DNA of 49,565 nucleotides from Gemmatimonadales bacterium (GCA_036259315.1 DATABZ010000336.1:1-49565), one strand, 5' to 3'. Positions 20,628-46,445 are shown, numbered from the stretch's first letter. The notes: a model not told the origin generated them from the letters alone. Numbers and translations are program-made.

Positions 20628-20800
20628 CGAGACGCTCCGGATTCAGGATCCGGGGAGATGCGCCGGTCGGAGGAACTTGCACGGCGGCACACTCCTCGCA
20701 GCGCTCCTCGAGTTCTGCGCGGGGGAGTGTGACGCGGCTCACGCAAGCGCTATTGGCGCTTGCCTCGCGAGGCGGAACTTACGAGGTTGAGCACCGAGCG

Positions 20801-22912: not shown

Positions 22913-24112
<1,200 letters not shown>

Positions 24113-24113
24113 T

Positions 24114-27318: not shown

Positions 27319-27520
27319 CGTCATCGAATTGACACGATCCCTTCGGGTCCGTTCCGGGTGGGAATCTCCCGGAGTGTGATCTGTGACCTAGTCGGGCGCC
27401 CCACACGGCCTTAGCTTGGGGCCCACGAAACGAATCCGATACCCGTGGCCCGCGTTCACCGAATCGGGCGAATGTGCACCTGGAGCGGGCATGACTACGA
27501 CGACTCAGGGGAATAACGCT

Positions 27521-28914: not shown

Positions 28915-30750
28915 ATGCCCAGAGTCCCGCTGGCTGCCGGTGCGCTGCTCGTCGTGCTCGCCTGTGCGGACGGACGCCCCGCTGCGCCTGCCGCGGGCGC
29001 CGACGACCGCCCATCTCGACAGTCGCTCGGTGCGGCTGCGGCATCCACAGACAGCGTCGGCGCCGCCGGTGGTCAGTGGACCACCGCGGCCGGCGATTAC
29101 GCGAACACGCGGTTCAGCGGACTGAGCCAGATCACCACGGAGAACGTCAAGAACCTGAAGGTCTCCTGGACGTTCTCCACCGGAGTGCTCCGCGGCCAGG
29201 AGGCGGCACCGCTGGTGGTCGGGCAGACGATGTACGTGGTCACCCCCTTCCCCAACATCCTGCACGCGCTCGACCTCGCCAATCCCGGCACCACCCGCTG
29301 GTCCTTCGAACCGAAACCGCTCTCCGCGGCCCAGGGCGTCGCCTGCTGCGACGTGGTGAACCGGGGCGCGGCCTACGCGGATGGGCGGGTGTTCTTCAAC
29401 ACGCTCGACAATCACACGGTCGCCGTGGATGCGGAGACGGGGAAGGAGATCTGGCGGACGAAGCTGGGAGAGATCAATCGCGGCGAGACGATGACGATGG
29501 CGCCGCTGGTCGTGAAGGGGAAGGTGCTGGTGGGGAACAGCGGCGGTGAGATGGGTGTGCGCGGCTGGCTCACCGCGCTCGATGCCGCGACGGGCCGCGT
29601 GGTCTGGCGAGCCTACAGCACGGGGCCGGACACGGAGGTGTTGTTGGGAGACCGGTTCAAGCCGTTCTACCCCGCGGACCGGCAGCCGGATCTGGGCGTG
29701 AAGAGCTGGCCGGGCGACGCCTGGAAAACAGGTGGCGGGAACGTCTGGGGGTTCGTCTCGTACGATCCCGACCTCGACCTCGTCTACTACGGGACGGCCA
29801 ACCCGGGCCCCTGGAACCCCGAGGTGCGGCCGGGCGACAACAAGTGGACCTCGTCGGTGTTCGCTCGCGACCCGGACGACGGGCAGGGGGTGTGGGCCTA
29901 TCAGTGGAGCCCGCACGACCTGTTCGACCACGACGGCATCAACGAGAACGTGCTGCTCGACCTCGAGTGGCGGGGCGGGCCGCGGAAGGTGCTGGTTCAC
30001 GCGGAGCGGAACGGATACGTCTACGTCCTCGACCGCACCACGGGCGAGGTGCTGTCGGCGGAGCCCTTCCACTTCATCACGGCGTACCGCGGGGTGGATC
30101 TCCGCACGGGCCGCCTGCGCGTCGTGGAGGAGAAGAAGCCGACGACCGGCGTGGTGGTCCGCATGATCTGCCCCAGCGCCCCGGGCGCCAAGGATTGGCA
30201 GCCGATGGCGTGGTCGCCGCGCACGAGACTGCTCTACATCCCCCACCAGAATCTCTGCATGGACTTCGAGGCGACCGAGGCGAACTACATCGCGGGAACA
30301 CCGTATGTCGGCGCGAACGTGAAGTACTACGCTGGTCCGGGTGGGCACCGGGGGGAGCTCTCGGCCTGGGACCCCGTGGCGGCGAAGGAGACCTGGACGA
30401 TCAAGGAGCGGTTCCCGGTGTGGAGCGGCACGCTCGCGACCGGGGGCGACGTGGTGTTCTACGGCACCATGGACGGGTACTTCAAGGCGGTGGACGCGCG
30501 CACCGGCGCGGAGCTGTGGCGCTTCAAGACCGGATCGGGAATCATCGGTCAACCCGTGACCTACCTCGGTCCGGACGGGAAGCAGTACGTCGCAATCCTC
30601 GCCGGGGTCGGCGGCTGGTCCGGCGCGATCGTAGCGGCCGGGCTCGACCCGCGGGACTCCACCGCGGGGAACGGGTTCGCGAACGCGATGCGGGACCTGC
30701 CGCAATACACCACCAAGGGCGGCATGCTCTATGTCTTCGGGCTTCCGTAG
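28915..30750 (+). CDS. xoxF: PQQ-dependent alcohol/methanol dehydrogenase, XoxF-like (copy 1)
   Basis: 611 aa. Vicinal Cys pair GVACCDVVNRGAAYADGRVFF; eight-bladed propeller W-motifs; GNSGGEMGVRGW; PHDLFDHDGINE with a DxD signature (D338/D340 precursor numbering). GAGG RBS 4 nt upstream of the ATG. Confidence 0.88.
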   Translation: MPRVPLAAGALLVVLACADGRPAAPAAGADDRPSRQSLGAAAASTDSVGAAGGQWTTAAGDYANTRFSGLSQITTENVKNLKVSWTFSTGVLRGQEAAPLVVGQTMYVVTPFPNILHALDLANPGTTRWSFEPKPLSAAQGVACCDVVNRGAAYADGRVFFNTLDNHTVAVDAETGKEIWRTKLGEINRGETMTMAPLVVKGKVLVGNSGGEMGVRGWLTALDAATGRVVWRAYSTGPDTEVLLGDRFKPFYPADRQPDLGVKSWPGDAWKTGGGNVWGFVSYDPDLDLVYYGTANPGPWNPEVRPGDNKWTSSVFARDPDDGQGVWAYQWSPHDLFDHDGINENVLLDLEWRGGPRKVLVHAERNGYVYVLDRTTGEVLSAEPFHFITAYRGVDLRTGRLRVVEEKKPTTGVVVRMICPSAPGAKDWQPMAWSPRTRLLYIPHQNLCMDFEATEANYIAGTPYVGANVKYYAGPGGHRGELSAWDPVAAKETWTIKERFPVWSGTLATGGDVVFYGTMDGYFKAVDARTGAELWRFKTGSGIIGQPVTYLGPDGKQYVAILAGVGGWSGAIVAAGLDPRDSTAGNGFANAMRDLPQYTTKGGMLYVFGLP

Positions 30751-31330
30751 CGGTCGGAGCAGCACTCGTAGGCTCTGCGGCAGCGGCGGGGGCGGGCTGC
30801 TCCTGGCCGTCGTGCTCGTGGCCGGCCTGGGGTGCGAGCGCGAGACGAGGCGATTCCGGGAGGTGCCGCCTACGGCGACGCCGGGCAGCGCGCTGCGCCT
30901 CAGCTCGCTCAATCCGGGGCCGCCGGTGCCGGACCCCACGATCCGGAGCGCCTACGCGGAGAACGCCTACGCGGTCTCCGAGGGGAAGCGGCTGTACACC
31001 CAGTTCAACTGCGTGGGCTGCCACGCAATGGGCGGCGGTGCGATGGGCCCGCCGCTGATGGACGACGAGTGGATCTACGGCGCCGAGCCGGAGAACATCT
31101 TCGCCACCATCGTGCAGGGCCGGCCCAATGGGATGCCCGCCTTCGGCTCCAGGCTCTCCACCAATCAGGTGTGGCAGCTCGCGGCCTACGTGCGCTCGAT
31201 GAGCGGGCTCCTGCGCAAGGACGTGGCCCCCGGCAGGGCGGACGCGATGCAGGCCAAGGCCCAGGAGCAGGCGACGACCGAGCAGCGCCCGGTGGAATCC
31301 ACCGTTCCCCCCAAGTCGGAGCGTCCGTGA
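30731..31330 (+). CDS. class I c-type cytochrome, membrane-tethered (XoxG-like role inferred)
   Basis: 199 aa; hydrophobic N-terminus ending ...VAGLGC; heme motif CVGCH; GRPNGMPAFG (Met ligand region). 20-bp overlap with xoxF copy 1. Paralog of 41567..42103. Confidence 0.75.
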   Translation: MSSGFRSGRSSTRRLCGSGGGGLLLAVVLVAGLGCERETRRFREVPPTATPGSALRLSSLNPGPPVPDPTIRSAYAENAYAVSEGKRLYTQFNCVGCHAMGGGAMGPPLMDDEWIYGAEPENIFATIVQGRPNGMPAFGSRLSTNQVWQLAAYVRSMSGLLRKDVAPGRADAMQAKAQEQATTEQRPVESTVPPKSERP

Positions 31331-32286
31331 CGCAGTTCCCGGGCGCGCACTCGGCGCATGCTCCGGCCGGGCCGCAGGCGCTGATGCTCGACCGGCTGGG
31401 CGAGCTGTTGTACGGGATCGCCGCGGTCGTGTTCGTGCTGGTGGTGGCGGCGCTGCTGGTAGCCGCGTTCCGCCGGCGCCGCGCGGGGGAGGAGATGGAG
31501 AGTCCGGCGCGCGAGCGCCGGATGGCGATGGCCGTCGCGATCGCCGCAGGGGCTACCGTGGCCACGCTGATCACCGTTCTGTTCCTCAGCTTCGGTACCG
31601 GGAAGCAGCTGACCGGGACCGCGCCGCCCGACGCGATTCAGATCCGCGTCACCGGCCGGCAGTGGTTCTGGGACGTGGAGTACCGGGACTCCCTGCCGCA
31701 ACGGTGGGCGACCACGGCAAACGAGATCCACGTGCCGGTGGGGCGTCCCGTCGTGTTCCAGCTGCGCTCGTCGGACGTGATTCACAGCTTCTGGGTGCCC
31801 AATCTCGGGGTGAAGCGCGACATGATTCCGGGCCAGGAGACCAGTATCTGGTTCCAGGCCGACACGCCCGGCGTTTACCGCGGCCAGTGCGCCGAGTTCT
31901 GTGGCTACCAGCACGCCAAGATGGCGTTCCTGATCGTGGCGGAGCCGCCGGACCGGTTCGCCGCCTGGCTCGACCGCCAGCGCGATACCGCCCGGACCCC
32001 GACCGACTCGCTCGCGCGTCGCGGTCAGGAGGTCTTCCTCGCCTCGACTTGCGTGATGTGTCACGCCATCGGCGGGACCCCGGCCGGAAGCCGGGTGGGC
32101 CCCAACCTGACCCATCTCGCGAGCCGCCGGACCATCGCCGCCGGCACGCTGCCCAATACCCGCGGACACCTGGCCGGCTGGATCGTGGACCCGCAGCAGA
32201 TCAAACCCGGCGTCCGGATGCCGCCCAACGCTCTGTCCCCGGACGACCTCCAGGCCCTGCTCGCCTACCTCGAGAGCCTCGAATGA
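31327..32286 (+). CDS. ctaC: cytochrome c oxidase subunit II with C-terminal cytochrome c domain (caa3-type)
   Basis: GTG 31327 overlaps the upstream stop (GTGA); alternative ATG at 31384. Two TM helices. CuA motif HSFWVP...CAEFCGYQHAKM; C-terminal heme motif CVMCH and PGVRMPP. Confidence 0.85.
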   Translation: MTQFPGAHSAHAPAGPQALMLDRLGELLYGIAAVVFVLVVAALLVAAFRRRRAGEEMESPARERRMAMAVAIAAGATVATLITVLFLSFGTGKQLTGTAPPDAIQIRVTGRQWFWDVEYRDSLPQRWATTANEIHVPVGRPVVFQLRSSDVIHSFWVPNLGVKRDMIPGQETSIWFQADTPGVYRGQCAEFCGYQHAKMAFLIVAEPPDRFAAWLDRQRDTARTPTDSLARRGQEVFLASTCVMCHAIGGTPAGSRVGPNLTHLASRRTIAAGTLPNTRGHLAGWIVDPQQIKPGVRMPPNALSPDDLQALLAYLESLE

Positions 32287-34232
32287 GGCCCGACACGGCC
32301 ACGGCGCCGGAAGTCATCACGGTCAACCCGCTCGATCCCGCGACCCTGGAACGGGAGCGGCGGGAGCTGGAGCGCTCGTGGCGGGCCGAGCCGGGACTCT
32401 GGGGCTGGCTCACCAATGTGGACCACAAGTCGGTCGCCCTGCGCTACATCGTCACCGCGTTCGCGTTCTTCCTGCTGGGTGGCGTCGAGGCGGCGCTGAT
32501 GCGGATGCAGCTCGCCCGTCCCGAGAACCAGCTGCTCGGGCCCGACGAATACAGCCAGATCTTCTCCACCCACGGCACCACGATGATGTTCCTCTTCGCG
32601 GTGCCCATCGTGATGGCCGTCGGGCTGTACCTGGTCCCCCTCATGATCGGCACGAGGAACGTCGCCTTCCCGCGGCTCAACCTCTACGGCTATTACGTCT
32701 ACCTGATCGGCGGGGTGCTGCTCTACACCGGCCTCCTGCTGAACACGGGGCCCGAGGCCGGATGGTTCAACTACGTGCCGCTGTCGGGCCCGGAGTTCTC
32801 GCCCGGCAAGCGCAGCGACGTCTACGCCCAGACGGTCACCTTCACCGAGATCTCCGCATTGATCACGTCGGTGGAGATCATCGTGACCGTGTTCAAGCAG
32901 CGCGCGCCGGGCATGTCGCTCAACCGGATGCCGCTGTTCGTCTGGGCCCAGCTGGTCACGGCGTTCATGGTGATGTTCGCCATGCCGTGGGTCGCGACCG
33001 CGAGCATGTTCCTGGCCATGGACCGCCTGATCGGGACCCACCTGTTCAACCCGGCGGAGGGAGGGGACCCGCTGCTCTGGCAGCACCTCTTCTGGTTCTT
33101 CGGGCACCCCGAGGTGTACATCATCTTCGTGCCCGCGCTCGGGTTCGTCTCCAGCATCGTGTCCGCCTTCACCGGCCGGCCGATCTTCGGCTATCCGGTC
33201 ATGGTCCTCGCGCTCGTGGTCACGGGCTTTCTGAGCTTCGGGCTCTGGGTCCACCACATGTTCGCCACCGGTATCCCCCAGCTGAGCGAGAGCTTCTTCA
33301 GCGCGGTGAGCATGATGATCGCGATCCCCACCGGGGTGCAGATCTTCTGCTGGACCGCGACGATCTGGTCGGGCCGGCCGCGCTTCACCGTCCCGTTCCT
33401 CTTCGTGCTCGGCTTCGTGGTCGTGTTCATCATCGGCGGCTTCACGGGAGTGATGGTCGCCTCGGTGCCCTACGACGTGCAGGCGCACGACAGCTATTTC
33501 GTCGTGGCGCACCTCCACTACGTGCTGTTGGGGGGCATGGTGTTCCCACTCTTCGGCGCGGCCTACTTCTGGCTGCCGAAGGTGACCGGGCGCATGCTGG
33601 ACGAGCACCTGGGCCGCTGGCACTTCGCGCTCTTCTTCATCGGGGTGAACCTGACCTTCTTCCCGATGCACCAGCTCGGTCTCGACGGCATGACCCGGCG
33701 GGTCTACACCTACCTGCCGGAGACGGGCTGGGGCACGCTGAATTTGGTGGCCACGCTCGGCGCGCTCACGATCGCCGCGAGCGTGGCCGTGTTCCTGGTC
33801 AACCTGGTGCGGAGCCGGCGCGCCGGCGTGCCCGCGGGGGACGACCCCTGGGGCGGGCCGGACCTGGAGTGGGCCACGAGCTCGCCGCCGGCGCCGTACA
33901 ACTTCCACCTCATCCCGACGGTGCAGAGCCGCACCCCGCTGTGGAAGCGGGAGCCGGACGCGCCGGTCGTGACCGGACTCCGCACCGACATGCGCGAGAT
34001 CCTGGTGACGACGATGCTGGACGCCGAGCCCGACAACCGGATGCGGCTGCCGGAGCCCAGCATCTGGCCGCTGCTGGCGGCACTCGCGACGGGCGTCACG
34101 TTCATCACCCTGATCTTCACGCCGTGGGGGCTGCCGGTCGGGGCCGTGCTGATCACCATCGCGTTCACCGGCTGGGGCTGGCCGAGCGGAAAGGAGCACG
34201 AGCTACAGGTGCGGGAGGAGCGGGAGGGATGA
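32283..34232 (+). CDS. ctaD: cytochrome c oxidase subunit I (A1-type), with a 2-helix C-terminal extension
   Basis: ATGA overlap with ctaC. WLTNVDHKSVALRY, IFSTHGTTMMFLF, LFWFFGHPEVYIIF (His-Tyr and Glu motif), GLWVHHMF, HDSYFVVAHLHYVL. 649 aa; the last ~100 aa add two TM helices. Confidence 0.92.
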   Translation: MRPDTATAPEVITVNPLDPATLERERRELERSWRAEPGLWGWLTNVDHKSVALRYIVTAFAFFLLGGVEAALMRMQLARPENQLLGPDEYSQIFSTHGTTMMFLFAVPIVMAVGLYLVPLMIGTRNVAFPRLNLYGYYVYLIGGVLLYTGLLLNTGPEAGWFNYVPLSGPEFSPGKRSDVYAQTVTFTEISALITSVEIIVTVFKQRAPGMSLNRMPLFVWAQLVTAFMVMFAMPWVATASMFLAMDRLIGTHLFNPAEGGDPLLWQHLFWFFGHPEVYIIFVPALGFVSSIVSAFTGRPIFGYPVMVLALVVTGFLSFGLWVHHMFATGIPQLSESFFSAVSMMIAIPTGVQIFCWTATIWSGRPRFTVPFLFVLGFVVVFIIGGFTGVMVASVPYDVQAHDSYFVVAHLHYVLLGGMVFPLFGAAYFWLPKVTGRMLDEHLGRWHFALFFIGVNLTFFPMHQLGLDGMTRRVYTYLPETGWGTLNLVATLGALTIAASVAVFLVNLVRSRRAGVPAGDDPWGGPDLEWATSSPPAPYNFHLIPTVQSRTPLWKREPDAPVVTGLRTDMREILVTTMLDAEPDNRMRLPEPSIWPLLAALATGVTFITLIFTPWGLPVGAVLITIAFTGWGWPSGKEHELQVREEREG

Positions 34233-34837
34233 CGGCGCCGACCCGCGCGCTCGACGTCTCGAAGCTGCCTTCCACGGTCTTCGACCACCGGAGCCACATG
34301 TGGTGGGGCACGCTCGGCTTCATGCTGATCGAGGGCACCACGCTCTTCGTCTGCATCGCGAGCTACTTCTACCTCCGGCTGAACTTCACGGTGTGGCCAC
34401 CGGAGCACACGCTTCGGCCCGCGCTCTTCTGGCCTACGGTCCACGTGATCGTTCTGCTCGCCAGTGCGGTGCCGATCACTCTGGCGGATCGGGCCGCGCG
34501 GCGACTGGATTTGCCGGAGATGCGCCGCTGGTTCGTGATCGCCTCCCTGTTCGCCGTCTCGTTCCTGTTCCTGCGGTGGCAGGACTTCCTCGCCCTGAAC
34601 GTGCGCTGGGACGCCAATGCTTACGGCTCGATCGCCTGGGCGGCGGCGGGGTTCCACGGCACCATCCTGCTGCTCCAGGTCGTGGAGACGCTGATCTTCA
34701 CCGTATTCCTCTTCAGCAAAGATTTCGAGGAGAAGCACTTCTCCGACGCGAGCGACACCGCCTTCTACTGGTACTTCTTCGTGGGCAGCTGGATCCCGAT
34801 CTACCTAACGCTCTACCTGAGCCCCCGACTGCTATGA
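34229..34837 (+). CDS. ctaE: cytochrome c oxidase subunit III-like (5-TM form)
   Basis: ATGA overlap with ctaD. 202 aa; HMWWGTLGFMLIEGTTLF...; five predicted TM helices. Aligns by eye to the C-terminal third of the fused subunit I/III at 43041..45593. Confidence 0.75.
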   Translation: MTAPTRALDVSKLPSTVFDHRSHMWWGTLGFMLIEGTTLFVCIASYFYLRLNFTVWPPEHTLRPALFWPTVHVIVLLASAVPITLADRAARRLDLPEMRRWFVIASLFAVSFLFLRWQDFLALNVRWDANAYGSIAWAAAGFHGTILLLQVVETLIFTVFLFSKDFEEKHFSDASDTAFYWYFFVGSWIPIYLTLYLSPRLL

Positions 34838-34850
34838 GGCCGCTGCGGAG

Positions 34851-35225
34851 ATGACCACCGACACCAGCGCACCACTCGCGGACGGCACCAGGATCGGCGC
34901 CCTGTGGACCGCCAACCTGCTGGGGCCGCTCGCCGTGCTGATCGGGCTCGAGATCGCCTACATCTTCGCCGACCGCGCCTGCGTGACCGGCGACATGCTG
35001 CCGGTGCATCTGACCTGGCTCGCGAGCCTGCTCGCGTCGGGGCTCGCCGGGTGGCTCGGCTGGCGCGAGTGGCGGCGGTGGGGCGGCAGTCATGCCGGTG
35101 AGGACGCGGGGCTCGGGGGACGCAGCCGATTCCTGGCGCTGATGGGGATGCTCCTGAGCGCGGTGGCCGCCCTGGTCATCGCGGCGCAGTGGTCCGCCGC
35201 CTTCGTCTTCCATCCCTGCCAGTGA
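34851..35225 (+). CDS. small 3-TM membrane protein with conserved Cys residues, oxidase-associated, uncharacterised
   Basis: 124 aa, hydrophobic. Shares the WREWRR motif, Cys positions and gene position with 45601..46008. Confidence 0.55.
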   Translation: MTTDTSAPLADGTRIGALWTANLLGPLAVLIGLEIAYIFADRACVTGDMLPVHLTWLASLLASGLAGWLGWREWRRWGGSHAGEDAGLGGRSRFLALMGMLLSAVAALVIAAQWSAAFVFHPCQ

Positions 35226-35227
35226 CC

Positions 35228-36469
35228 ATGCTCGCGCTCCTCCTCCACGAAGGCGCACCGCTGGCGCCGCACGATCTCTGGAGCGCCTGGAGCTGGGAGC
35301 CGGCCGTGTTGGCCGGGCTCGGCGTCACCGCCCTGCTGTACGCGCGAGGAATGGCCCGTCTGAGGGCCCGCAGCGGCAGCCGGATGGCGGCGCGGCGGCG
35401 CGAGGCGGCGGCGTTCTGGTGCGGCTGGGTGGCGCTCGCCGTGGCCCTGGTGTCGCCGCTCCACCCGCTGGGCGAGGCGCTGCTCGCCGCGCACATGGCG
35501 CAGCACGAGCTGCTCATGGTGCTCGCCGCGCCGCTCCTCGTGTTGGGCCGGCCACTGGTGGTGTCGCTGTGGGGGCTCTCCCCGGGACCGCGCCGCGCCA
35601 TCGGCCGGTGGGTGGGCGGGCTGCGCTCCCTCTGGCGGCTGATCTCCCGGGTCGAGGTGGCCTGGCTGCTGCACGCCCTGGCCATCGTCGGATGGCACCT
35701 GCCCGTGCTGTATCAGGGGACGGTGGAGTCCGACCTGGTGCACAGCCTGCAGCACTCCAGCTTCCTGCTCACGGCGCTGCTCTTCTGGTGGTCCGTGCTG
35801 CCGGGCGCCACGCTCAGGGGCCGCCATGGGGCGGCCATCATGTCCCTCTTCGGCACCATGGTGTATACCGGCGGGATCGGCGCGCTGCTGACGTTCGGAC
35901 GCACCCTCTGGTACCCGGCGTACGGCGAGGCCGCCCCGCTCTGGGGGCTCACGCCCCTCGAGGACCAGCAGCTCGCAGGTCTGATCATGTGGGTGCCGGG
36001 CGGCCTGTCCTACCTGCTCGCCACCGTCTGGCTCACGATCGACTGGCTGCGAGTCTCCGAGGCGAGGGTCGTCAGGTCGGAGCGCGCCCGCTCGCGGGCG
36101 GCCGCCGCCGCGCTGCTGGTCGTCCTGGCTCTCGCCGCCTGCGAGCGCCCGCGCGCGCTCTCCGCGGAGGAGGCGGCGCAGGTGGTCGGCGGAGATCCCG
36201 AGCGGGGGGCGCTCGCCTTCCGGCGGTACGGCTGCGGGTCCTGCCACACGCTGGGCGGCGTGCCCGGTGCGAACGGGCTGGTGGGCCCGCCGCTGGGCGG
36301 AATCGGCGCCAGGACGTACGTCGCCGGGGTGCTGACCAACACACCCGAGAACCTGACACGGTGGATCCAGTCGCCCCAGGAGGTGGACTCGCTCACCGCG
36401 ATGCCCGACCTCGGCGTCAGCGCGGGCGAGGCCCGCGACATCGCGGCCTGGCTCTACACCCGGCGCTGA
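35228..36469 (+). CDS. ctaG: cytochrome c oxidase assembly factor CtaG (caa3_CtaG family) fused to a C-terminal cytochrome c domain
   Basis: Start ATG 35228. Multi-TM region with HMAQHELLMVLAAPLLVLG, GWHLPVLY and LQHSSFLLTALLFWW, typical of the CtaG/YcnJ-type membrane family. Then an internal TM/lipobox-like LLVVLALAAC and the heme motif CGSCH. Confidence 0.75.
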   Translation: MLALLLHEGAPLAPHDLWSAWSWEPAVLAGLGVTALLYARGMARLRARSGSRMAARRREAAAFWCGWVALAVALVSPLHPLGEALLAAHMAQHELLMVLAAPLLVLGRPLVVSLWGLSPGPRRAIGRWVGGLRSLWRLISRVEVAWLLHALAIVGWHLPVLYQGTVESDLVHSLQHSSFLLTALLFWWSVLPGATLRGRHGAAIMSLFGTMVYTGGIGALLTFGRTLWYPAYGEAAPLWGLTPLEDQQLAGLIMWVPGGLSYLLATVWLTIDWLRVSEARVVRSERARSRAAAAALLVVLALAACERPRALSAEEAAQVVGGDPERGALAFRRYGCGSCHTLGGVPGANGLVGPPLGGIGARTYVAGVLTNTPENLTRWIQSPQEVDSLTAMPDLGVSAGEARDIAAWLYTRR

Positions 36470-36517
36470 CGTGCCCCCGGTCACCGACCCTCTCGCGGGC
36501 GCCGCCCAGGATCCGTC

Positions 36518-37819: not shown

Positions 37820-37848
37820 TTGGTGGACCACCACGAGGAGAGTGGCTG

Positions 37849-38640: not shown

Positions 38641-38763
38641 AGCATGTGACGGGCCTCACGGCTCAGCCCGGCGGGCCCGCTCTACACTCCGAGATCCGAT
38701 GGCCGGCGCGGGAAGGTAAGCGCCGACCCGTGGGGCCCCGCCCCGCCTGCCCACGGTGACATC

Positions 38764-40722
38764 ATGACACGCCCGTACTCTCGCGGCTTTCTGCTTCGCG
38801 GCGTTCCCTTGCTGTTGCTTGCCGCCACCCTGACCGGGTGCGGCTCCGAGGCACCGCCCGGCGGTGGGGGCGCACGTCCGCCTGACGACGCCGCAGCAGG
38901 GGGAACCGCGGCAGGCGGCGGCGCCGTCGGCACCCGGACGACGGCTGAGCCGATGCTCCCACCCGGCGCAGACCAGGGCGAGTGGACCATTCCCGCGCGG
39001 GATTATGGCAGCACTCGCTACAGTCCCCTCGATCAGATCACGAGCGAAAACGTCCGTCAGCTGCGGCTGGCCTGGAGCTTCTCGACCGGGGTGCTCCGGG
39101 GCCACGAGGCCGCCCCGATCGTGGCGGACGGCACGATGTACGTGGTCACCCCCTGGCCCAACTACCTCTACGCGCTCGACCCCGTGACCGGCGAGCAGAG
39201 GTGGAAGTACGACCCGAAGACCGCGCGGGCCGCGCAGGGCGTCGCCTGCTGCGACGTCGTGAATCGCGGGGCCGCGTACGCGGACGGCCGCGTCTTCTTC
39301 AACACGCTGGACAATCACACCGTCGCGGTGGACGCGAAGAGCGGGAAGGAGATCTGGAAGGTCAAGCTGGGCGAGATCAACCGCGGCGAGACGATGACCA
39401 TGGCGCCGCTGGTGGTGAACGACAAAGTGTACGTGGGGAACAGCGGCGGTGAGATGGGCGTCCGGGGCTGGATCACCGCACTCGATGCCGCCTCCGGTGA
39501 GATCGCCTGGCGGGCCTACCACACCGGCCCCGACGAGGACGTGCTGATCGGACCCAGGTTCAAGCCGTTCTACCCCTCGCACCGGGGGAAGGACCTCGGC
39601 GTCACTACCTGGCCGCCCGACCAGTGGAAGCTCGGCGGCGGCACTGTCTGGGGCTGGATCTCCTACGATCCGGAGACGAACACCATCTACTACGGCACCT
39701 CGAATCCGGGCGTCTGGAACCCCGCCATGCGTCCGGGCGACAACAAGTGGTCCACGACGATCTTCGCCCGGGATGCGGATACGGGCGAGGCGCTCTGGGC
39801 GTACCAGACGGCGCCGCACGACGAGTTCGACTACGACGGAGTGAACGAGGTCGTCCTGCTGGAGCTCGAGATCGACGGACAGCCGCGGAAGGTCGCGGTC
39901 CGCCCCGGCCGCACCGGCTTCATGTACGTCATCGACCGCGCGACCGGCGAGGTGCTGTCCGCCGAGCCCTATGGCTACCTGAACTGGGCGAAGGGCATCG
40001 ATCTCAAGACGGGTGTGCCGATCATCAACGAGGAGAAGCGCACCGGCAACCGCTCCGCCACCAACATCTGCCCCGCGGCACCGGGCATGAAGGATTGGCA
40101 GCCGACGGCGTTCTCCCCGCGCACCGGGCTCCTGTACGTGCCGCACAACAACCTCTGCATGGACTACGAGGGTGGGGAGGCGGGCTACATCGCGGGAACC
40201 CCGTACGTGGGAGCCCGGGTCAAGATGTACGCGGGGCCTGGGGGGCACCGCGGAGTCTACAGCGCGTGGGACCCCGCCGCGCAGCGGGAGGTGTGGGCCA
40301 TCAAGGAGCGGTTTCCGGTGTGGAGCGGCACCGTGGTGACCGCTGGGGACGTCGCCTTCTACGGCACGATGGACCGCTGGTTCAAGGCGGTGCACGCCCG
40401 CACGGGTGAGCCGCTCTGGCAGTTCCGGGTGGGGTCGGGAATCATCGGGCAGCCGGTCACCTATCTCGGAGCGGACGGCCGGCAATACGTCGCCATTCTC
40501 TCCGGCGTGGGCGGCTGGGCGGGGGCGACGGCCCTGGGGCTCATGCCGGAGATCGATCCCTTCATCGCCCTCGGTTTCGGCAACGCCATGGCGGACCTGC
40601 CGCAGTACACGGCGCAGGGAGGCATGGTATACGTGTTCGCGTTGGAGCGGCCCGGTCGCCCGACCGCGGCATCGGGGGGACGGCGAGCCGGCGACACGAC
40701 GGGCCCGGCGGGCACGCGATGA
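38764..40722 (+). CDS. xoxF: PQQ-dependent alcohol/methanol dehydrogenase, XoxF-like (copy 2), lipoprotein-type signal
   Basis: 652 aa. Lipobox LTGC at residues 23-26, followed by an ~45-aa Gly/Ala/Pro linker. GVACCDVVNRGAAYADGRVFF. PHDEFDYDGVNE with the canonical XoxF DYD (D356/D358). C-terminal ~25-aa basic extension. Confidence 0.9.
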   Translation: MTRPYSRGFLLRGVPLLLLAATLTGCGSEAPPGGGGARPPDDAAAGGTAAGGGAVGTRTTAEPMLPPGADQGEWTIPARDYGSTRYSPLDQITSENVRQLRLAWSFSTGVLRGHEAAPIVADGTMYVVTPWPNYLYALDPVTGEQRWKYDPKTARAAQGVACCDVVNRGAAYADGRVFFNTLDNHTVAVDAKSGKEIWKVKLGEINRGETMTMAPLVVNDKVYVGNSGGEMGVRGWITALDAASGEIAWRAYHTGPDEDVLIGPRFKPFYPSHRGKDLGVTTWPPDQWKLGGGTVWGWISYDPETNTIYYGTSNPGVWNPAMRPGDNKWSTTIFARDADTGEALWAYQTAPHDEFDYDGVNEVVLLELEIDGQPRKVAVRPGRTGFMYVIDRATGEVLSAEPYGYLNWAKGIDLKTGVPIINEEKRTGNRSATNICPAAPGMKDWQPTAFSPRTGLLYVPHNNLCMDYEGGEAGYIAGTPYVGARVKMYAGPGGHRGVYSAWDPAAQREVWAIKERFPVWSGTVVTAGDVAFYGTMDRWFKAVHARTGEPLWQFRVGSGIIGQPVTYLGADGRQYVAILSGVGGWAGATALGLMPEIDPFIALGFGNAMADLPQYTAQGGMVYVFALERPGRPTAASGGRRAGDTTGPAGTR

Positions 40723-41570
40723 CGCGCCGGGCAGCAGCCGTCGGCCTCGTCGCCGCGCTCGCGGGCGCCACACTGGCTTCCGGCGCGTTGCCCGGTGACC
40801 CCGCCGCCGCCACGCCGGCCGGCGTCCTCCGCGTCTGCTCCGACCCCAACAACCTTCCGTTCTCCAATCGCGCGGGGCAGGGGTTCGAGAACCGCCTCGC
40901 CGAGCTCGTCGCGGCCGAGCTCGGAGCGCAGGTCCGCTACACCTGGTGGGCGCAACGGCGGGGATTCGTGCGCAACACCCTCGGCGCCGGAGCGTGTGAC
41001 CTCATCCCGGGGGTTCCGGCCGGCTACGAGCTGGTGGCCACGACCGAGCCCTACTATCGCTCCACCTACGTCTTCGTGACCCGGCGGGACCTGTCGCCGG
41101 CCATCGAGTCCATCGACGATCCCAGGCTGCACCGGCTCCGGATCGGCGTCCATTTGATCGGGGACGACTACGCCGCGCCGCCGCCCGCCACGGCACTCGC
41201 CCGGCGCGGCATCGTGGACAACGTGCGAGGCTACAGTCTGTACGGCGACTATCGGGAGCCGAACCCACCCGCCCGGCTGGTCGAAGCCGTGGCGAAGGGA
41301 GAGGTCGACGTGGCGCTGGTATGGGGTCCCCTCGGCGGCTACTTCGCCGAGCGGGAGTCGGCGCCGCTCCGGGTCACTCCGCTGCTGGAGCGTGGTGACG
41401 GCCCCGGCGTGCCCTTCGTCTTCGACATCGCGATGGGCGTGCGCCGCGGGGACTCGGCACTGGCCCGGAGAGTCGGCACTGTCCTGGACCAGCGGCGTAC
41501 CGAGGTCCGGCGCATCCTCGAGCGGTACGGCGTGCCGCTGGTTCCCGGTCGCCCGAAGGAGGCGACATGA
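40719..41570 (+). CDS. xoxJ: quinoprotein dehydrogenase-associated periplasmic binding protein (MoxJ/XoxJ family)
   Basis: ATGA overlap with xoxF copy 2. 283 aa; LRVCSDPNNLPFSN...GFENRLAELVA...CDLI...PYYRSTYVFV...VDVALVWGPLGGYF matches the MoxJ-type SBP signature as I recall it. Confidence 0.8.
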   Translation: MTRRAAAVGLVAALAGATLASGALPGDPAAATPAGVLRVCSDPNNLPFSNRAGQGFENRLAELVAAELGAQVRYTWWAQRRGFVRNTLGAGACDLIPGVPAGYELVATTEPYYRSTYVFVTRRDLSPAIESIDDPRLHRLRIGVHLIGDDYAAPPPATALARRGIVDNVRGYSLYGDYREPNPPARLVEAVAKGEVDVALVWGPLGGYFAERESAPLRVTPLLERGDGPGVPFVFDIAMGVRRGDSALARRVGTVLDQRRTEVRRILERYGVPLVPGRPKEAT

Positions 41571-42103
41571 TCCGCGCGCGCCCACTCGCCGCATCCGTGT
41601 TCTCGGCCCTGCTCGCCGGCTGCGGCGGCCAGGAATCGGCACCCGAGCCCGCCGCCAGCTGGCTGGCCGAGCCGCTCACGGCCGTGCAGACCAGCGCGAT
41701 CACCGCCGGCGCGGGGCAGACGCCCGTCGAGATCAAGAACCCCTATACCGACGATCCCGGTGCGCTGAGCCAGGGACGTCAGCTCTACAACGGGTTCAAC
41801 TGCGCCGGCTGCCACGGCTCAGCGGGCGGCGGCGGGATGGGCCCCCCACTGGCGGACCAGGACTGGATCTACGGCGGCTCCGACGCGCAGATCTACGCGA
41901 CCATCGTCCAGGGCCGGCCCAACGGCATGCCGGCCTTCGGCCACGCACTGACCGGTGAGGCGGTCTGGAAGCTCGCCGCGTACGTGAAGTCGCTCGGGCC
42001 GGGCACTGGCGAGAACCAGGGCGGCGGGGGTCAAGGCGGTGGGGAGCAGGGACGCGAGACGCAGGGCGGCGGGCAGCAGAGCGGCGGAACCCAGAGTGAT
42101 TGA
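41567..42103 (+). CDS. class I c-type cytochrome lipoprotein (XoxG-like role inferred) with Gly/Gln-rich tail
   Basis: ATGA overlap with xoxJ. Lipobox LAGC; heme motif CAGCH; GRPNGMPAFG. C-terminal tail GENQGGGGQGGGEQGRETQGGGQQSGGTQSD. Confidence 0.8.
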   Translation: MIRARPLAASVFSALLAGCGGQESAPEPAASWLAEPLTAVQTSAITAGAGQTPVEIKNPYTDDPGALSQGRQLYNGFNCAGCHGSAGGGGMGPPLADQDWIYGGSDAQIYATIVQGRPNGMPAFGHALTGEAVWKLAAYVKSLGPGTGENQGGGGQGGGEQGRETQGGGQQSGGTQSD

Positions 42104-43031
42104 CTGGTCCGCGGGCGCGGCGGCCGAGCAGATCGGCGATCTCTTCTGGACGATGACGACCCTGGGTGCCGTCATCTTCGTCATCTTCTGCATCGCCCTC
42201 GCCTATGCGCTCCTGCATCGGCGGCGTCCCCAGGACCCGGCGACACCCGAGCGCGACCGCAAGGGCACCCGGCTGATTCTGTGGCTCGGCGCCGTGGTGC
42301 CCGCGCTCATCCTCGTGCCGCTCTTCATCTGGACCGTGCAGACGCTCGCCGCGCTCGACCCACGCTCGCAACGGCCGGATCTCGTGGTGGATCTCGTCGG
42401 CAAGCAGTGGTGGTGGGAGATCCGCTATCGGGACAGCGTTCCGGGGAACGTCTTCGTCACCGCGAACGAGCTCCACATCCCCGTGGGGCAACGGGTCGAG
42501 CTGCGGCTCACCGCGACGGACGTGATCCACAGCTTCTGGGTCCCGGAGCTGCACGGGAAGACCGATCTCATCCCGGGCCGCGAAAACGTCACCTGGATCC
42601 AGGCCGATCGCCCGGGCGTCTACACCGGCCGGTGCGCCGAGTACTGCGGGATGCAGCATGCCAACATGGGGCTGCTCGTGATCGCCCAGACGCCCGAGGA
42701 GTTCCGGGCCTGGACCGCCGGGCAGCGCCGCACCGCCGCGGAGCCGCGCGACTCGCTGACCGCGAAGGGTCGCGAGGCGTTCCTCGGTTCGGCCTGCGCA
42801 CTGTGCCACCAGGTGCGGGGGACACCGGCGGGCGGGTACCTCGGCCCCGATCTCACCCATGTGGCGAGCCGGCGCACGCTGGCCTCGGCGCTGCTGCCCA
42901 ACACGCCCGGCCACCTCGGCGGGTGGATCGGGAACCCGCAGGCGCTCAAGCCGGGCTCGCGCATGCCGCGGGTCCCGATGAGCCGCGAGGAGTTCAGCCT
43001 CATCCACCGCTACCTCCAGACGCTGGAGTAG
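42096..43031 (+). CDS. ctaC: cytochrome c oxidase subunit II with C-terminal cytochrome c domain (caa3-type), copy 2
   Basis: GTG 42096 chosen because EQIGDLFW aligns with LDRLGELLY of copy 1; alternative ATG at 42153. CuA motif HSFWVP...CAEYCGMQHANM; heme motif CALCH. Confidence 0.85.
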   Translation: MIDWSAGAAAEQIGDLFWTMTTLGAVIFVIFCIALAYALLHRRRPQDPATPERDRKGTRLILWLGAVVPALILVPLFIWTVQTLAALDPRSQRPDLVVDLVGKQWWWEIRYRDSVPGNVFVTANELHIPVGQRVELRLTATDVIHSFWVPELHGKTDLIPGRENVTWIQADRPGVYTGRCAEYCGMQHANMGLLVIAQTPEEFRAWTAGQRRTAAEPRDSLTAKGREAFLGSACALCHQVRGTPAGGYLGPDLTHVASRRTLASALLPNTPGHLGGWIGNPQALKPGSRMPRVPMSREEFSLIHRYLQTLE

Positions 43032-43040
43032 GTTGCACCG

Positions 43041-45593
43041 ATGGCCACCACCGCCGAACGGCCGAGCGTAAGCGCGGAGCAGAAAGAGGGCTTCGAGCGC
43101 GCCTGGAGTCAGCCGACGGGGTTCCTCGGCATGCTGCAGACGATCGACAACATCCCGATCGCGCAGCGCTATCTCGCCACCTCGTTCGGCTTCTTCCTGC
43201 TCGGCGGGCTCCTGGCCGCGCTGATGCGGATCCAGCTCGGCACGCCCGACAATACCTTCCTCGACGCGGAGACCTACAACCAGATCTTCACGATGCACGG
43301 GACGACGATGATGTTCCTGTTCGTCATCCCGTTCATCGAGGCGCTCGCGACCTACCTGCTGCCGCTCATGCTGGGGACCCGGGACCTCCCGTTTCCCCGG
43401 CTGACCGCGCTGAGCTACTGGACCTACCTGTTCGGCGGGCTCCTGATCTACTCCAGCTTCCTGTTCGGCCTGGCGCCGGACGGCGGCTGGTTCGCCTACG
43501 TGCCGCTCACCAACAAGCAGTGGTCGCCCGGGCTCAACCTCGACTTCTGGGACATCGCGCTCAGCGTGGCCGAGATCGCGGCCATGGGCGCGGCGGCGGA
43601 GATCATCGTGTCGGTGCTCCGCACCAGGTCGCCGGGGATGTCGATCAACCGGATCCCCGTGTTCGGCTGGGCCATGCTGGTGACGGCCTTCATGATCATC
43701 TTCGGGTTCACGCCGCTCATCGTCGGCACCGCGATGCTGGAGCTGGACCGGAAGGGGCTCACCAGCTTCTTCGTGCCCGAGAACGGCGGTGACCCGCTGC
43801 TCTGGCAGCACCTCTTCTGGGTCTTCGGGCATCCCGAGGTGTACATCATGTTCCTCCCGGCGGTGGGGATCCTGACCCATGTCGTCCAGGTCTTCGCCCG
43901 GCGTCCGGTGGTGAGCTACACGCTGGTCGTGCTGGCGATCATCGCGACCGGGTTCCTCAGCTTCGGGCTCTGGGCCCACCACATGTACGCGACCGGCATC
44001 TCCCCCATGGCCCTGGGGTACTTCGCCGCGGCGAGCACCGTGATCGCGATTCCCACGGGCGTGCAGGTGGTGGGGTGGGTCGCCACCCTGTGGGTCGGGC
44101 GTCCGCTGTGGCGCACGCCGCTGCTGTTCGGCATCTCCGGGCTCGTCATCTTCGTGCTCGGCGGGATCACCGGCGTCATGGTCGCCTCGCCGCCGTTCGA
44201 CTTCCAGGCCCACGATTCCTACTTCGTCGTGGCGCACCTCCACTACGTGCTCATCGGCGGCACCGTCTTCCCGCTGTTCGCCGGCCTCTACTACTGGCTG
44301 CCCAAGATCACCGGGCGGATGATGGACGAGCAGATCGGCCTGTGGAGCGCGGTGGTCATGTTCATCGGGTTCAACCTGGCGTTCTTCCCGATGCACATCT
44401 CCGGGCTGCTCGGAATGCCCCGCCGGGTGTACACCTACCCGACCGAAGCGGGATTCGATACCTACAACCTGCTCTCCTCGATCGGCGCCTTCCTCTTCGC
44501 CGGCGGCGTGCTGCTCAGCCTGTTCAACTTCTTCCGCAGCCTGCGAGCGGGCCGGCCGGCCGGGGACAACCCGTGGAACGCGGACTCCCTGGAGTGGTCG
44601 AACTCGTCGCCGCCGCCGAACGCGCAGTATCCCCGCATACCCGTGGTGCGCGACCGCCACCCGCTCTGGGACGAGCACTGGCGGCAGGAGCGCATGCGGC
44701 CGGAGGAGACACCGGCGCGCACGGCCGAGGCGCAGGAGGACGTGGAGCAGATGGCCTACTGGCCGACCCGGTGGCGCGGCGCCCTGGTGGTCTCGGTGAC
44801 CGAAGGCCGGCCGCTCGCGGTCGTGCACATGCCGCGGCGGTCGTTCGCGCCGTTCATCATGTCGGTCGGCTTCCTGGTGTTGTTCGCGGCGCTCATCGTG
44901 GACCAGACCACGTTCATGGCGGTCGGGGCGGGCATCATCGCCGTGGCCCTGATCATGTGGTTCTGGCCCCAGGACACCGAGACTGCGGCCATGGAGGAGA
45001 TGTACGGCCCCGAGCCGAAGGAGCTGCCGCTCGCGCAGGCGGGACCGGCAGCCAACGGCTTCTGGGGCACCTGCGTCTTCCTGCTCATCATGGCGACCGC
45101 GCTCACCACGATCGTCGCGGGCTACTTCTATCTGGGCGGCAACGTGGCGCTCGACCTGGTCGGAAGCCCCGCCGAGCCGATCGAGCGGCCGGCGATCGCG
45201 GTCGGGCTGCTGGCGCTCGGGATGATTCCCGTCGTGGCCGGGATCCGCGCAATCGGGCGTCGGCGGCTCGGTCTGCTGCGCCTGGGTGTGACCGCCGCGC
45301 TGCTGCTCGCGGCGCTGCATCTCTGGCTCCTCATCGCCACGTGGCTCGGCAGCGGGCTCTCGCCCTCCAGTGACGCGCAGCACTCCGCGTTCGTCGGCGT
45401 GGCCGGGTTCCATGCCGTGCTCTCCGTCATTCTCCTGGTGATGACGGCGGTCGCGACGATCTGGGCCTGGCTCCGCCCGGCCGACGGGCGGGGCCACGCG
45501 GCCGCCTGGAACGCCGCGCTGGTGTACGGTTTCGCCATCGTGAGCGGCGTGATCGTCTTCGGCGTTCTCTATCTGGTCCCCCGCTTCGGTTGA
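43041..45593 (+). CDS. ctaD: cytochrome c oxidase subunit I fused to subunit III (copy 2)
   Basis: 850 aa. IFTMHGTTMMFLF, LFWVFGHPEVYIMF, GLWAHHMY, HDSYFVVAHLHYVL. The C-terminal ~300 aa aligns to the copy-1 subunit I tail plus the separate subunit III (GFWGTCVFLLIMATALTTIVAGYFYL vs MWWGTLGFMLIEGTTLFVCIASYFYL). Confidence 0.9.
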   Translation: MATTAERPSVSAEQKEGFERAWSQPTGFLGMLQTIDNIPIAQRYLATSFGFFLLGGLLAALMRIQLGTPDNTFLDAETYNQIFTMHGTTMMFLFVIPFIEALATYLLPLMLGTRDLPFPRLTALSYWTYLFGGLLIYSSFLFGLAPDGGWFAYVPLTNKQWSPGLNLDFWDIALSVAEIAAMGAAAEIIVSVLRTRSPGMSINRIPVFGWAMLVTAFMIIFGFTPLIVGTAMLELDRKGLTSFFVPENGGDPLLWQHLFWVFGHPEVYIMFLPAVGILTHVVQVFARRPVVSYTLVVLAIIATGFLSFGLWAHHMYATGISPMALGYFAAASTVIAIPTGVQVVGWVATLWVGRPLWRTPLLFGISGLVIFVLGGITGVMVASPPFDFQAHDSYFVVAHLHYVLIGGTVFPLFAGLYYWLPKITGRMMDEQIGLWSAVVMFIGFNLAFFPMHISGLLGMPRRVYTYPTEAGFDTYNLLSSIGAFLFAGGVLLSLFNFFRSLRAGRPAGDNPWNADSLEWSNSSPPPNAQYPRIPVVRDRHPLWDEHWRQERMRPEETPARTAEAQEDVEQMAYWPTRWRGALVVSVTEGRPLAVVHMPRRSFAPFIMSVGFLVLFAALIVDQTTFMAVGAGIIAVALIMWFWPQDTETAAMEEMYGPEPKELPLAQAGPAANGFWGTCVFLLIMATALTTIVAGYFYLGGNVALDLVGSPAEPIERPAIAVGLLALGMIPVVAGIRAIGRRRLGLLRLGVTAALLLAALHLWLLIATWLGSGLSPSSDAQHSAFVGVAGFHAVLSVILLVMTAVATIWAWLRPADGRGHAAAWNAALVYGFAIVSGVIVFGVLYLVPRFG

Positions 45594-45600
45594 GTGGCCC

Positions 45601-46008
45601 ATGACCCAGGGAGAGACGGAGCACCAGCTCGGCATCGAGACCGCCCCGACGGGCCGGCTGCTGTTCGGGCTGCTCGGCGGGGCGGCGGCGTGGAGCCTTC
45701 ACTTCCTCGCCAGCTACGCCGCCCTGTCGATCGGCTGCGTCGCCGGGTGGCGCGGGATTCGGGAGATCCTGGCCATCGGCACGCTGGTGCTCCTGGCGGT
45801 CGCCGTGTGGTCCACGGTGGTCGCCTGGCGGGAGTGGCGGCGGGTGAGCGGCAATCAGCCCTGGGACGTGGCACTCGGCGAGCCGCGGGGCTGGTTCGCC
45901 TACCTCATGCTGACCGGCGTGCTAATGGGCGTGGTGTCCGCCTTCACCATCGGCCTGGAAGGATGGGGTACCCTGGTGCTGCCGGTGTGCGGGTGGGACG
46001 TGCGATGA
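45601..46008 (+). CDS. small 3-TM membrane protein with conserved Cys residues, oxidase-associated (paralog of 34851..35225)
   Basis: 135 aa; the WREWRR motif, a Cys after TM1 and a Cys near the C-terminus are shared with the copy-1 protein. Same position after subunit I/III. Confidence 0.55.
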   Translation: MTQGETEHQLGIETAPTGRLLFGLLGGAAAWSLHFLASYAALSIGCVAGWRGIREILAIGTLVLLAVAVWSTVVAWREWRRVSGNQPWDVALGEPRGWFAYLMLTGVLMGVVSAFTIGLEGWGTLVLPVCGWDVR

Positions 46009-46445
46009 GGCGGCGCCTGGGTGCGCTGCTCCTGCTCGTCGGTGCGGCGCCCGCGTGCTCGCCGGGCGGAGACGATGCCGCGCGCGCGGAAGTTCTGGCG
46101 ACGGTGCAGGGAGATCCGACCCGGGGGGAAGTCGCGATCGAGCGCTACGGCTGCGGCACGTGCCACGTCATTCCCGGACTCGCGCGCGCGCGGGGGAAGG
46201 TGGGTCCGCCGCTCACCGACTTCGCGCTCCGCACGTACATCGCGGGTAACTCCTTCAACACGCCGAACAATCTCGTCGCCTGGATTCGCCGCCCCGATTC
46301 GGTCGAGCCGGGCACCGTGATGCCCACCCTGGGCGTCACGGAGCAGGAGGCGCGCGACATCTCGGCCTACCTGCTGCTCGAGACCGCCACCGGCCAGTTC
46401 GGCCCGCCCAGGCTGCTCTCGCCCTCCCTCCTGCACGGCGACTGA
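46005..46445 (+). CDS. c-type cytochrome with N-terminal signal/anchor, stand-alone paralog of the CtaG-fused cytochrome domain
   Basis: ATGA overlap with the upstream gene. MRRRLGALLLLVGAAPAC; heme motif CGTCH. GPPLTDFALRTYIAGN...NLVAWIRRP...MP aligns to the C-terminus of 35228..36469. Confidence 0.75.
   Translation: MRRRLGALLLLVGAAPACSPGGDDAARAEVLATVQGDPTRGEVAIERYGCGTCHVIPGLARARGKVGPPLTDFALRTYIAGNSFNTPNNLVAWIRRPDSVEPGTVMPTLGVTEQEARDISAYLLLETATGQFGPPRLLSPSLLHGD

Follow-up and report, generated by a model that had tools for sequence, protein, structure and literature searches.

Canonical xoxFGJ clusters of the XoxF5, XoxF4 and XoxF2 types and mxaFJGI clusters encode a pyrroloquinoline quinone (PQQ) dehydrogenase, a dedicated c-type cytochrome and a MoxJ/XoxJ-type protein. 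These clusters contain no terminal oxidase, and electrons are passed via a soluble cytochrome cH to a separately encoded one. The XoxF3 clade is different: a XoxF3-Cox-CtaG cluster that includes a small hypothetical protein is described in passages of Voutsinos et al. 2024 in BMC Biol (PMC10875860), which attribute the first mention of cox and ctaG in a few xoxF3 operons to a 2014 mini-review by Keltjens et al. Here we analyze a 49,565-nt stretch of a soil genome, that of a Gemmatimonadales bacterium (GCA_036259315.1 DATABZ010000336.1; ~70% G+C), hereafter termed the window. It contains two gene sets on the same strand, module 1 (28915-36469) and module 2 (38764-46445). They are probably two paralogous XoxF3-type respiratory cassettes, each encoding a dedicated chain from alcohol to O2.

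Both modules belong to a single co-directional array of about 20 kb on the plus strand (28915-49077). Each module contains genes for a XoxF-type PQQ dehydrogenase, a small tethered cytochrome c, a fusion of the CuA-containing subunit II with a cytochrome c domain, subunits I and III, a three-helix protein with two Cys residues, and a third cytochrome c domain. With the canonical xox and mxa clusters the window shares the PQQ dehydrogenase, the dedicated cytochrome and the XoxJ-type protein. The gene content and the phyla match those of the XoxF3 clusters of Acidobacteria, Gemmatimonadetes and Verrucomicrobia, as presented in the relevant passages of PMC10875860. NRAMP genes and small hypothetical proteins, which have been described for XoxF3 clusters, adjoin the cassette in the examined relatives of the window. 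The window differs from the published clusters in its tandem of two dissimilar cassettes, separated by AI-2E and FNT genes, and by the subunit I-III fusion and the lack of CtaG in module 2. Neither an analysis of oxidase residues nor an electron path is given in the XoxF3 passages of PMC10875860. An earlier interpretation of this DNA, made from the sequence alone (the sequence-only reading), had proposed a self-contained chain for each module. The idea has good support from the synteny described below, but the novelty it implied is lost, since linkage of the dehydrogenase with the oxidase is the normal arrangement of the XoxF3 clade. Similarly, its statement that canonical clusters lack an oxidase holds for xoxF5 and mxa, but not for this clade.

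To characterize the linkage, one genome per species (GTDB) was scanned with an alignment of the dehydrogenases. The best 80 loci (L001-L080) were retained and searched with every module protein. Loci were considered informative if the sequence past the dehydrogenase extended for at least 4.5 kb (62 of 80) or, for the more distal genes, at least 9 kb (49 loci). The small cytochrome c is encoded directly downstream on the same strand in all 62 loci, CoxII in 61/62, CoxI in 60/62, and XoxJ in 51/62; CoxIII and CtaG follow in 47 and 48 of 49 loci, respectively. The three-helix protein was found between CoxIII and CtaG in 30/49 loci (tblastn, 1e-5). By the linkage test, which had been set beforehand on the xoxF-oxidase pair, the adjacency is not due to chance. 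The loci span at least six phyla and include Gemmatimonadota, Acidobacteriota (Pyrinomonadaceae, Bryobacteraceae, Thermoanaerobaculia, Vicinamibacterales, Terriglobia), Methylomirabilota/Rokubacteria, Binatia, Verrucomicrobiia, and Alpha-, Beta- and Gammaproteobacteria. The reverse approach, starting from homologs of the module 1 subunit I, revealed an upstream PQQ dehydrogenase in 5/5 of the loci retrieved in three look-ups (L085-L089).

The cassette is also found on plasmids. In Sinorhizobium medicae WSM419, a complete cassette is located between IS66 elements on the conjugative plasmid pSMED03 (L092, 17385-25398). On plasmid p1 of Methylocella tundrae T4 (L091), xoxFJG-ctaG and the oxidase genes occupy opposite strands. 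The conserved synteny together with the plasmid-borne cassettes indicates that the adjacency is ancient, has been conserved, and has been transferred as a unit. Cultured carriers are S. medicae WSM419 (pSMED03), Mesorhizobium spp., Sphingomonas horti and Roseisolibacter sp. H3M3-2.

The two dehydrogenases, DH1 (28915-30750, 611 aa, PF01011) and DH2 (38764-40722, 652 aa), score 656 and 670 bits with the TIGR03075 model (cutoff 480). Of the solved structures, 4MAE, a lanthanide methanol dehydrogenase from Methylacidiphilum fumariolicum, is closest to both (647 and 668 bits). It is followed in the PDB ranking by XoxF of M. extorquens and M. buryatense and then by MxaF enzymes, while ethanol dehydrogenases score about half of 4MAE (PedH ~340-365 bits, and ExaA likewise about half). 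The XoxF type was recognized by vicinal Cys-Cys, the Glu/Asn/Asp metal ligands, and an additional lanthanide Asp two residues past the catalytic Asp (D-x-D). In the alignment of DH2 with 4MAE, the corresponding ACCD, GET, NPG and D-Y-D motifs are all retained; DH1 has the same motif columns, with D-H-D in place of D-Y-D. Assignment of both proteins to the XoxF (lanthanide) type, as predicted by the sequence-only reading, is thus supported by the family model and by the residues.

A neighbor-joining tree was constructed for 64 homologs and five solved references (XoxF1 7O6Z, XoxF2 4MAE, XoxF5 6OC5 and 6DAM, MxaF 4TQO). DH1 and DH2 fall in one clade, apart from all these references. Although the lanthanide Asp is shared with xoxFGJ-type clusters, the identity of DH1 and DH2 to the XoxF1, XoxF2, XoxF5 and MxaF structures is as low as 47-54%. 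Both are ~68% identical to a plasmid gene from an xoxFJG cluster of M. tundrae T4, probably the one called XoxF3 in a paper on that strain; the named database relatives are mostly Gemmatimonadales proteins from metagenome-assembled genomes. By its cluster content, and by its place in a tree that holds no XoxF3 or XoxF4 references, the clade probably corresponds to the XoxF3 of the literature. The N-termini read from the translations are lipobox-like, VLAC in DH1 and LTGC in DH2. The lipobox evidence comes from the N-termini of the window proteins themselves, as a regular-expression survey of the homologs was too permissive.

The oxidase genes of module 1 encode subunit II with a C-terminal cytochrome c domain in the caa3 style (31327-32286; PF00116, PF00034), subunit I of 649 aa (32283-34232; PF00115, E 1.7e-149), in which the COX1 domain ends near residue 495 and is followed by a C-terminal extension, and a short subunit III of 202 aa (34229-34837; PF00510, 35.8 bits, cutoff 23.8). 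Module 2 encodes a subunit II of the same composition (42096-43031; PF00116, PF00034) and an 850-aa fusion of subunits I and III (43041-45593; PF00115, E 2.5e-144; TIGR02891, 677 bits, cutoff 671). Residues 661-848 of the fusion align with the separate CoxIII protein of module 1 (E 4e-17). The CuA motif H-x34-C-x-E-x-C-x3-H-x2-M, read in the translated subunits II, is intact in both modules. Both subunits I retain the six His ligands of the hemes and CuB, Tyr288 and the helix VI Glu286. The modules therefore have the subunit I ligands, Tyr and Glu, together with the subunit II CuA site and cytochrome c domain, that define A-family caa3-type oxidases. Profile searches recovered every family named by the sequence-only reading, that is, two PQQ dehydrogenases, COX1, COX2 with cytochrome c, COX3, Caa3_CtaG and Cytochrom_C.

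The proton channels are different from the canonical ones. Here, residues are numbered as in R. sphaeroides, and the module 1 subunit I was aligned to CtaD of M. smegmatis. The module 1 protein has substitutions K362Q, D132N at the D-channel entrance, N121L and N207E; the module 2 protein has K362Q, N121T, N139T and N207E, with D132 retained. The D-channel set N121/D132/N139/N207 thus reads L,N,N,E in module 1 and T,D,T,E in module 2, neither of which is canonical. Among 65 xoxF-linked subunits I, the K-channel lysine is replaced in all 65, by Gln in 62 and by Ala or Ser in three, whereas Lys is present in 65/65 canonical A-type representatives. No linked protein has lost Tyr288 or a heme or CuB ligand (65/65), and Glu286 is present in 62/65 (Trp in three). 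D132 is replaced by Asn in 39/58 module-1-type proteins and N207 by Glu in 44/65 linked proteins, and N121 is hydrophobic in most. The S. medicae plasmid protein carries the same channel residues, while that of M. tundrae T4 has no GHPEVY motif, and its K362 position is occupied by Ala.

Searching the full database with the module 1 subunit I yielded 150 cluster representatives. Those nearest to the query share the signature, and distant canonical A-type enzymes carry N-D-N-N and T-K. Seven positions, each conserved to at least 80% within each group, separate the signature-bearing clade from canonical A-type enzymes; they include two added Glu residues in helix IV, one of which is N207E. In a tree of 111 subunit I representatives, the clade holds together. 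An initial candidate rule, that K362Q is exclusive to xoxF-linked oxidases, was ruled out by subunit I-III fusions (L081-L083) that have K362Q but no PQQ dehydrogenase within 10 kb. Hence the signature marks an oxidase clade and not the linkage itself. In the literature on xoxF with caa3 and on K-channel variants in Acidobacteria, we found no account of this oxidase signature. The linked oxidases may possibly represent an A-family clade new to the literature, which has lost the K-channel lysine and remodelled the D-channel.

These substitutions raise the possibility that the linked enzymes are not ordinary proton-pumping O2 reductases, and that they reduce O2 but do not pump, pump with a changed stoichiometry, or rely on a different proton route or substrate. 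The universal replacement of K362, the frequent D132N and N207E, the mostly hydrophobic position 121, and the coherence of the clade with its seven distinguishing positions and added helix IV glutamates all fit such a scenario. On the other hand, the O2-reduction site is fully canonical: both heme ligands and the three CuB His residues are in place, as are Glu286 and the cross-link Tyr, which NO-reductase-type sites lack (PMC11214002). The canonical K-channel has also been lost independently in archaeal family A oxidases (PMC8239418), so an oxidase may remain functional without this lysine. On balance, we regard a departure from ordinary pumping as conceivable but rather unlikely. Equally tentative is a broader scenario, in which the XoxF3-wired oxidases would be an undescribed lineage with a rebuilt proton path, working with an altered proton-to-electron yield within a self-contained, horizontally mobile methanol:O2 complex of lipid-anchored XoxF, cytochrome c and oxidase.

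The dedicated-chain interpretation could work as follows. A lipid-anchored lanthanide/PQQ dehydrogenase would oxidize methanol in the periplasm, possibly to formate, and PQQH2 on the dehydrogenase would reduce the neighboring membrane-tethered class I cytochrome c. The next carriers would be the subunit II cytochrome c domain, CuA and heme a, and O2 would be reduced at the heme a3-CuB centre of the A-family oxidase encoded immediately downstream. Neither the quinone pool nor a bc1 complex or alternative complex III would take part in such a chain. We propose this path because of the established biochemistry of methanol dehydrogenases and caa3 oxidases, and it agrees with the genes present and with their intact redox ligands. 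The formate product could be imported by the FNT channel encoded between the modules. An assembly or accessory function in the oxidase is probable for CtaG, the three-helix Cys protein and the third cytochrome c.

The small cytochromes of module 1 (30731-31330, 199 aa, class I, one CxxCH) and module 2 (41567-42103, 178 aa, in the xoxG position) both match PF13442 and PF00034. The former has an N-terminal hydrophobic anchor and the latter a lipobox, LAGC. A role analogous to XoxG is suggested for them by the conserved position beside the dehydrogenase, which supports regarding them as positional analogues rather than demonstrated orthologs of XoxG. The top PDB matches of the module 2 protein are CcoP domains, with cytochrome cL ranking lower at E ~1e-10. 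The anchors and lipoboxes of the dehydrogenases and small cytochromes are compatible with a membrane-attached assembly, although they are only a hint of one.

Two described oxidase systems can be compared with this scheme. In the Thermus thermophilus caa3 oxidase (2YEV), which matches the module 1 subunit I at 424 bits, subunit II is fused to cytochrome c and subunit I to subunit III, as in module 2. The Thermus enzyme is of the A2 type and retains the K-channel lysine. In contrast, the window enzymes have the A1-type GHPEVY glutamate and no lysine, and their genes follow that of a dehydrogenase. The chain of the rus operon of Acidithiobacillus ferrooxidans reportedly forms a supercomplex. In this operon (cyc2-cyc1-coxBACD-rus; Appia-Ayme et al. 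1999, cited in PMC8239418), a periplasmic or outer donor system is wired through dedicated cytochromes c to its own aa3-type oxidase. It is the classical precedent for a substrate-specific 'downhill' chain. Its donor is Fe(II) via Cyc2 and rusticyanin and not a PQQ dehydrogenase, and the organisms and the oxidase lineage also differ.

Several observations weigh against a dedicated alcohol-to-O2 chain. The fusions of L081-L083, 59-61% identical to the module 2 fusion, show that this oxidase type is not exclusively dedicated to a dehydrogenase. In model A-type oxidases, the K-channel lysine is needed for turnover, as reported for E. coli and Rhodobacter mutants. Normal oxidase activity therefore cannot be assumed for the two subunits I of the window. 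The small cytochromes fail the model of cytochrome cL/MoxG (TIGR03872; 37 and 47 bits vs. a cutoff of 147.8), and in this they also differ from the canonical xox and mxa systems. As the sequence-only reading had noted, no pqq or heme a synthesis genes occur in the 49.6-kb window, and neither do genes for lanthanide uptake. A sigma-70 promoter scan gave zero promoter-like sites, and intrinsic terminator-like sites were no more common than in shuffled sequences; both scans are uninformative, which leaves gene spacing as the basis for the presumed operon structure. In the XoxF3 passages of PMC10875860, no XoxF3 enzyme is reported as purified and the substrate is given as not established. Expression of XoxF3 is minimal in Methylocella silvestris and shows no lanthanum response, whereas XoxF3 of M. 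trichosporium OB3b is strongly induced by cerium.

The first of these observations also fits a rival explanation, in which the oxidases are general-purpose enzymes fed by the whole cytochrome c pool, xoxF being an incidental neighbor and one donor among many. The window encodes no other heme-copper oxidase, as this explanation would have it. It is opposed by the same-strand synteny across phyla, and by the fact that every sampled relative of the module 1 subunit I is linked to xoxF. Moreover, each of the two complete oxidases is paired with its own dehydrogenase and its own cytochrome c. Rhizobia bear the cassette on accessory plasmids and have housekeeping oxidases on the chromosome in addition. 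We therefore consider general-purpose oxidases unlikely, and the dedicated chain the better account of the locus.

The dehydrogenases are the most similar pair between the modules (68% amino acid identity, with long identical stretches). The identity is lower for the other pairs: 51% for the XoxG-like cytochromes, 45% for CoxII, 48% for CoxI, 27% for CoxIII, 28% for the three-helix proteins and 49% for the third cytochromes c. The sequence-only estimate of two-thirds identity is thus correct for the dehydrogenases and too high for the rest (27-51%). Its conclusion that the copies are old stands; even in a 36-residue stretch identical in DH1 and DH2, 16 of 108 nucleotides differ, all of them synonymous.

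The shared gene order and strand, and the similarity of the dehydrogenases, could also indicate a recent tandem duplication in place, retained for redundancy or dosage. This is contradicted by most of the data. Not only are the oxidase subunits merely 27-48% identical, but CoxI of module 1 is closer to CoxI of other genera and phyla (60-73%) than to that of module 2. In the neighbor-joining tree, DH2 clusters with other Gemmatimonadota sequences (L001, L002, L003, L007) and not with DH1. The architectures differ in the I-III fusion, xoxJ and ctaG. Module 1 has the widespread architecture, with a separate subunit III and CtaG fused to cytochrome c. Module 2 represents a second, mostly Gemmatimonadota architecture with a subunit I-III fusion, its own xoxJ and no ctaG; such a fusion is also present in L001, L002, L026, L044, L045 and L084. 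Finally, loci L085-L089 have the same flanks as the window but contain module 1 only, with NRAMP genes in place of module 2. The notion of one module duplicated in place thus fails and is scarcely credible as a recent event. The modules represent separate lineages, and each resembles modules of other organisms more than it resembles its neighbor. As the differing architectures imply, the modules were inherited or acquired as ready-made units. The two-module tandem recurs in an independent 57.5-kb farmland contig (L090), so at least one related organism has kept the pair stably.

Among the accessory genes, a XoxJ-type periplasmic binding protein (40719-41570; TIGR03871, 310 bits, cutoff 212) is confined to module 2, while module 1 has none; the protein misses the MoxJ equivalog model (148 vs. 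258 bits). Conversely, a caa3-type CtaG with a fused C-terminal cytochrome c domain (35228-36469; PF09678, 190 bits) is encoded only in module 1. Its cytochrome c domain is 49% identical, and homologous, to the free cytochrome c of module 2 (46005-46445; 146 aa, PF00034), which has a signal- or lipoprotein-like N-terminus. In most related loci, a cytochrome c is fused to CtaG or adjoins it. These features are hints that the third cytochrome c may have a role in oxidase assembly, perhaps in redox handling of copper, rather than in the main electron path.

The three-helix membrane proteins of module 1 (34851-35225, 124 aa) and module 2 (45601-46008, 135 aa) were recognized by position and by their mutual alignment (28% identity, E 1e-8), and have zero matches in Pfam or NCBIfam. 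Two Cys residues are conserved, one after helix 1 and the other at the C-terminus. Both are predicted to be periplasmic by the positive-inside rule, and the proteins also have a W-R/N-x-W-R loop. Copper handling or a role as a small oxidase subunit is conceivable for this protein. The published AlphaFold-based similarity to 'vesicle transport' proteins is probably not meaningful.

All genes listed for the two sets by the sequence-only reading are intact on the plus strand, at the coordinates it gave, although its list omitted XoxJ of module 2 and the AI-2E and FNT genes between the modules. The ATGA/GTGA joins it described were located as six 4-bp overlaps, at 31327, 32283, 34229, 40719, 41567 and 46005. 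Longer overlaps are found at 30731 (20 bp) and 42096 (8 bp). The remaining gaps do not exceed 13 bp, except for 48 bp before the AI-2E gene at 36518, 29 bp before the FNT gene at 37849 and 123 bp before DH2 at 38764. Such spacing suggests co-transcription within the modules.

Two long open reading frames were rejected as wrong-frame artefacts of the high G+C content. Both products are rich in Arg, Ala, Gly and Pro and have no family matches. One of them, at 34300-34854, overlaps the real gene for CoxIII at 34229-34837; the other, at 37812-38759, masks the FNT gene in another frame.

Between the modules are the genes for an AI-2E-family transporter (36518-37819, plus strand; PF01594, E 1e-55) and an FNT (formate/nitrite) channel (37849-38640, plus strand; PF01226, 176.8 bits). 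The order AI-2E then FNT after the cassette is common to L085-L090. The FNT channel is 65% identical to that of L087, and FNT genes are present in only 6 of the 80 survey loci. From its family and position, the channel may import formate made by periplasmic methanol oxidation. The conserved flanks in L085-L089 consist of an AMP-binding enzyme, a small protein and GNAT upstream, and of AI-2E, FNT, EamA and a class IV aminotransferase downstream.

A gene for a membrane protein of the Na/Ca-exchanger family (46456-47502, plus strand; PF01699) starts 10 bp past module 2, and its membership of the system is uncertain. It is absent from the otherwise identical L090, and L083, whose oxidase cluster lacks xoxF, also has a gene of this family after the cytochrome c gene. 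A predicted lipoprotein (27416-28162, plus strand), encoded immediately before GNAT and module 1, contains seven tandem 27-bp units (27779-27967) encoding the Asp/Thr/Gly-rich repeat YGTGADTSG. A homolog with 46% identity is found at the equivalent place in L087. Metal binding in the periplasm is only a guess at its role. Further upstream, 22916-25307 (plus strand) encodes proteins similar to 4-hydroxyphenylpyruvate dioxygenase and homogentisate dioxygenase (tyrosine catabolism), followed by an AMP-binding acyl-CoA synthetase that belongs to the conserved left flank in L085 and L087. Located 6-15 kb upstream of module 1 (14087-16621, 16614-18471 on the minus strand, and 20519-22912) are two hybrid histidine kinase/response regulators that contain GAF and PAS domains, together with an ECF sigma/anti-sigma pair.

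The value of these results is practical rather than one of discovery: the linkage is near-universal in the clade, cultured carriers can be named, and testable proton-channel residues have been flagged. The plasmid-bearing strains S. medicae WSM419 and M. tundrae T4 are ready experimental systems. According to the XoxF3 passages of PMC10875860, there has been no biochemical study of any XoxF3 system. XoxF3 is the dominant methanol dehydrogenase type of soil Acidobacteria and Gemmatimonadota. If the proposed chain is correct, a dehydrogenase travelling with its own cytochromes and oxidase would constitute a compact, transferable form of respiration on methanol or other alcohols that operates without the quinone pool, with a bearing on the consumption of atmospheric and plant methanol in soils and on the biological use of lanthanides.

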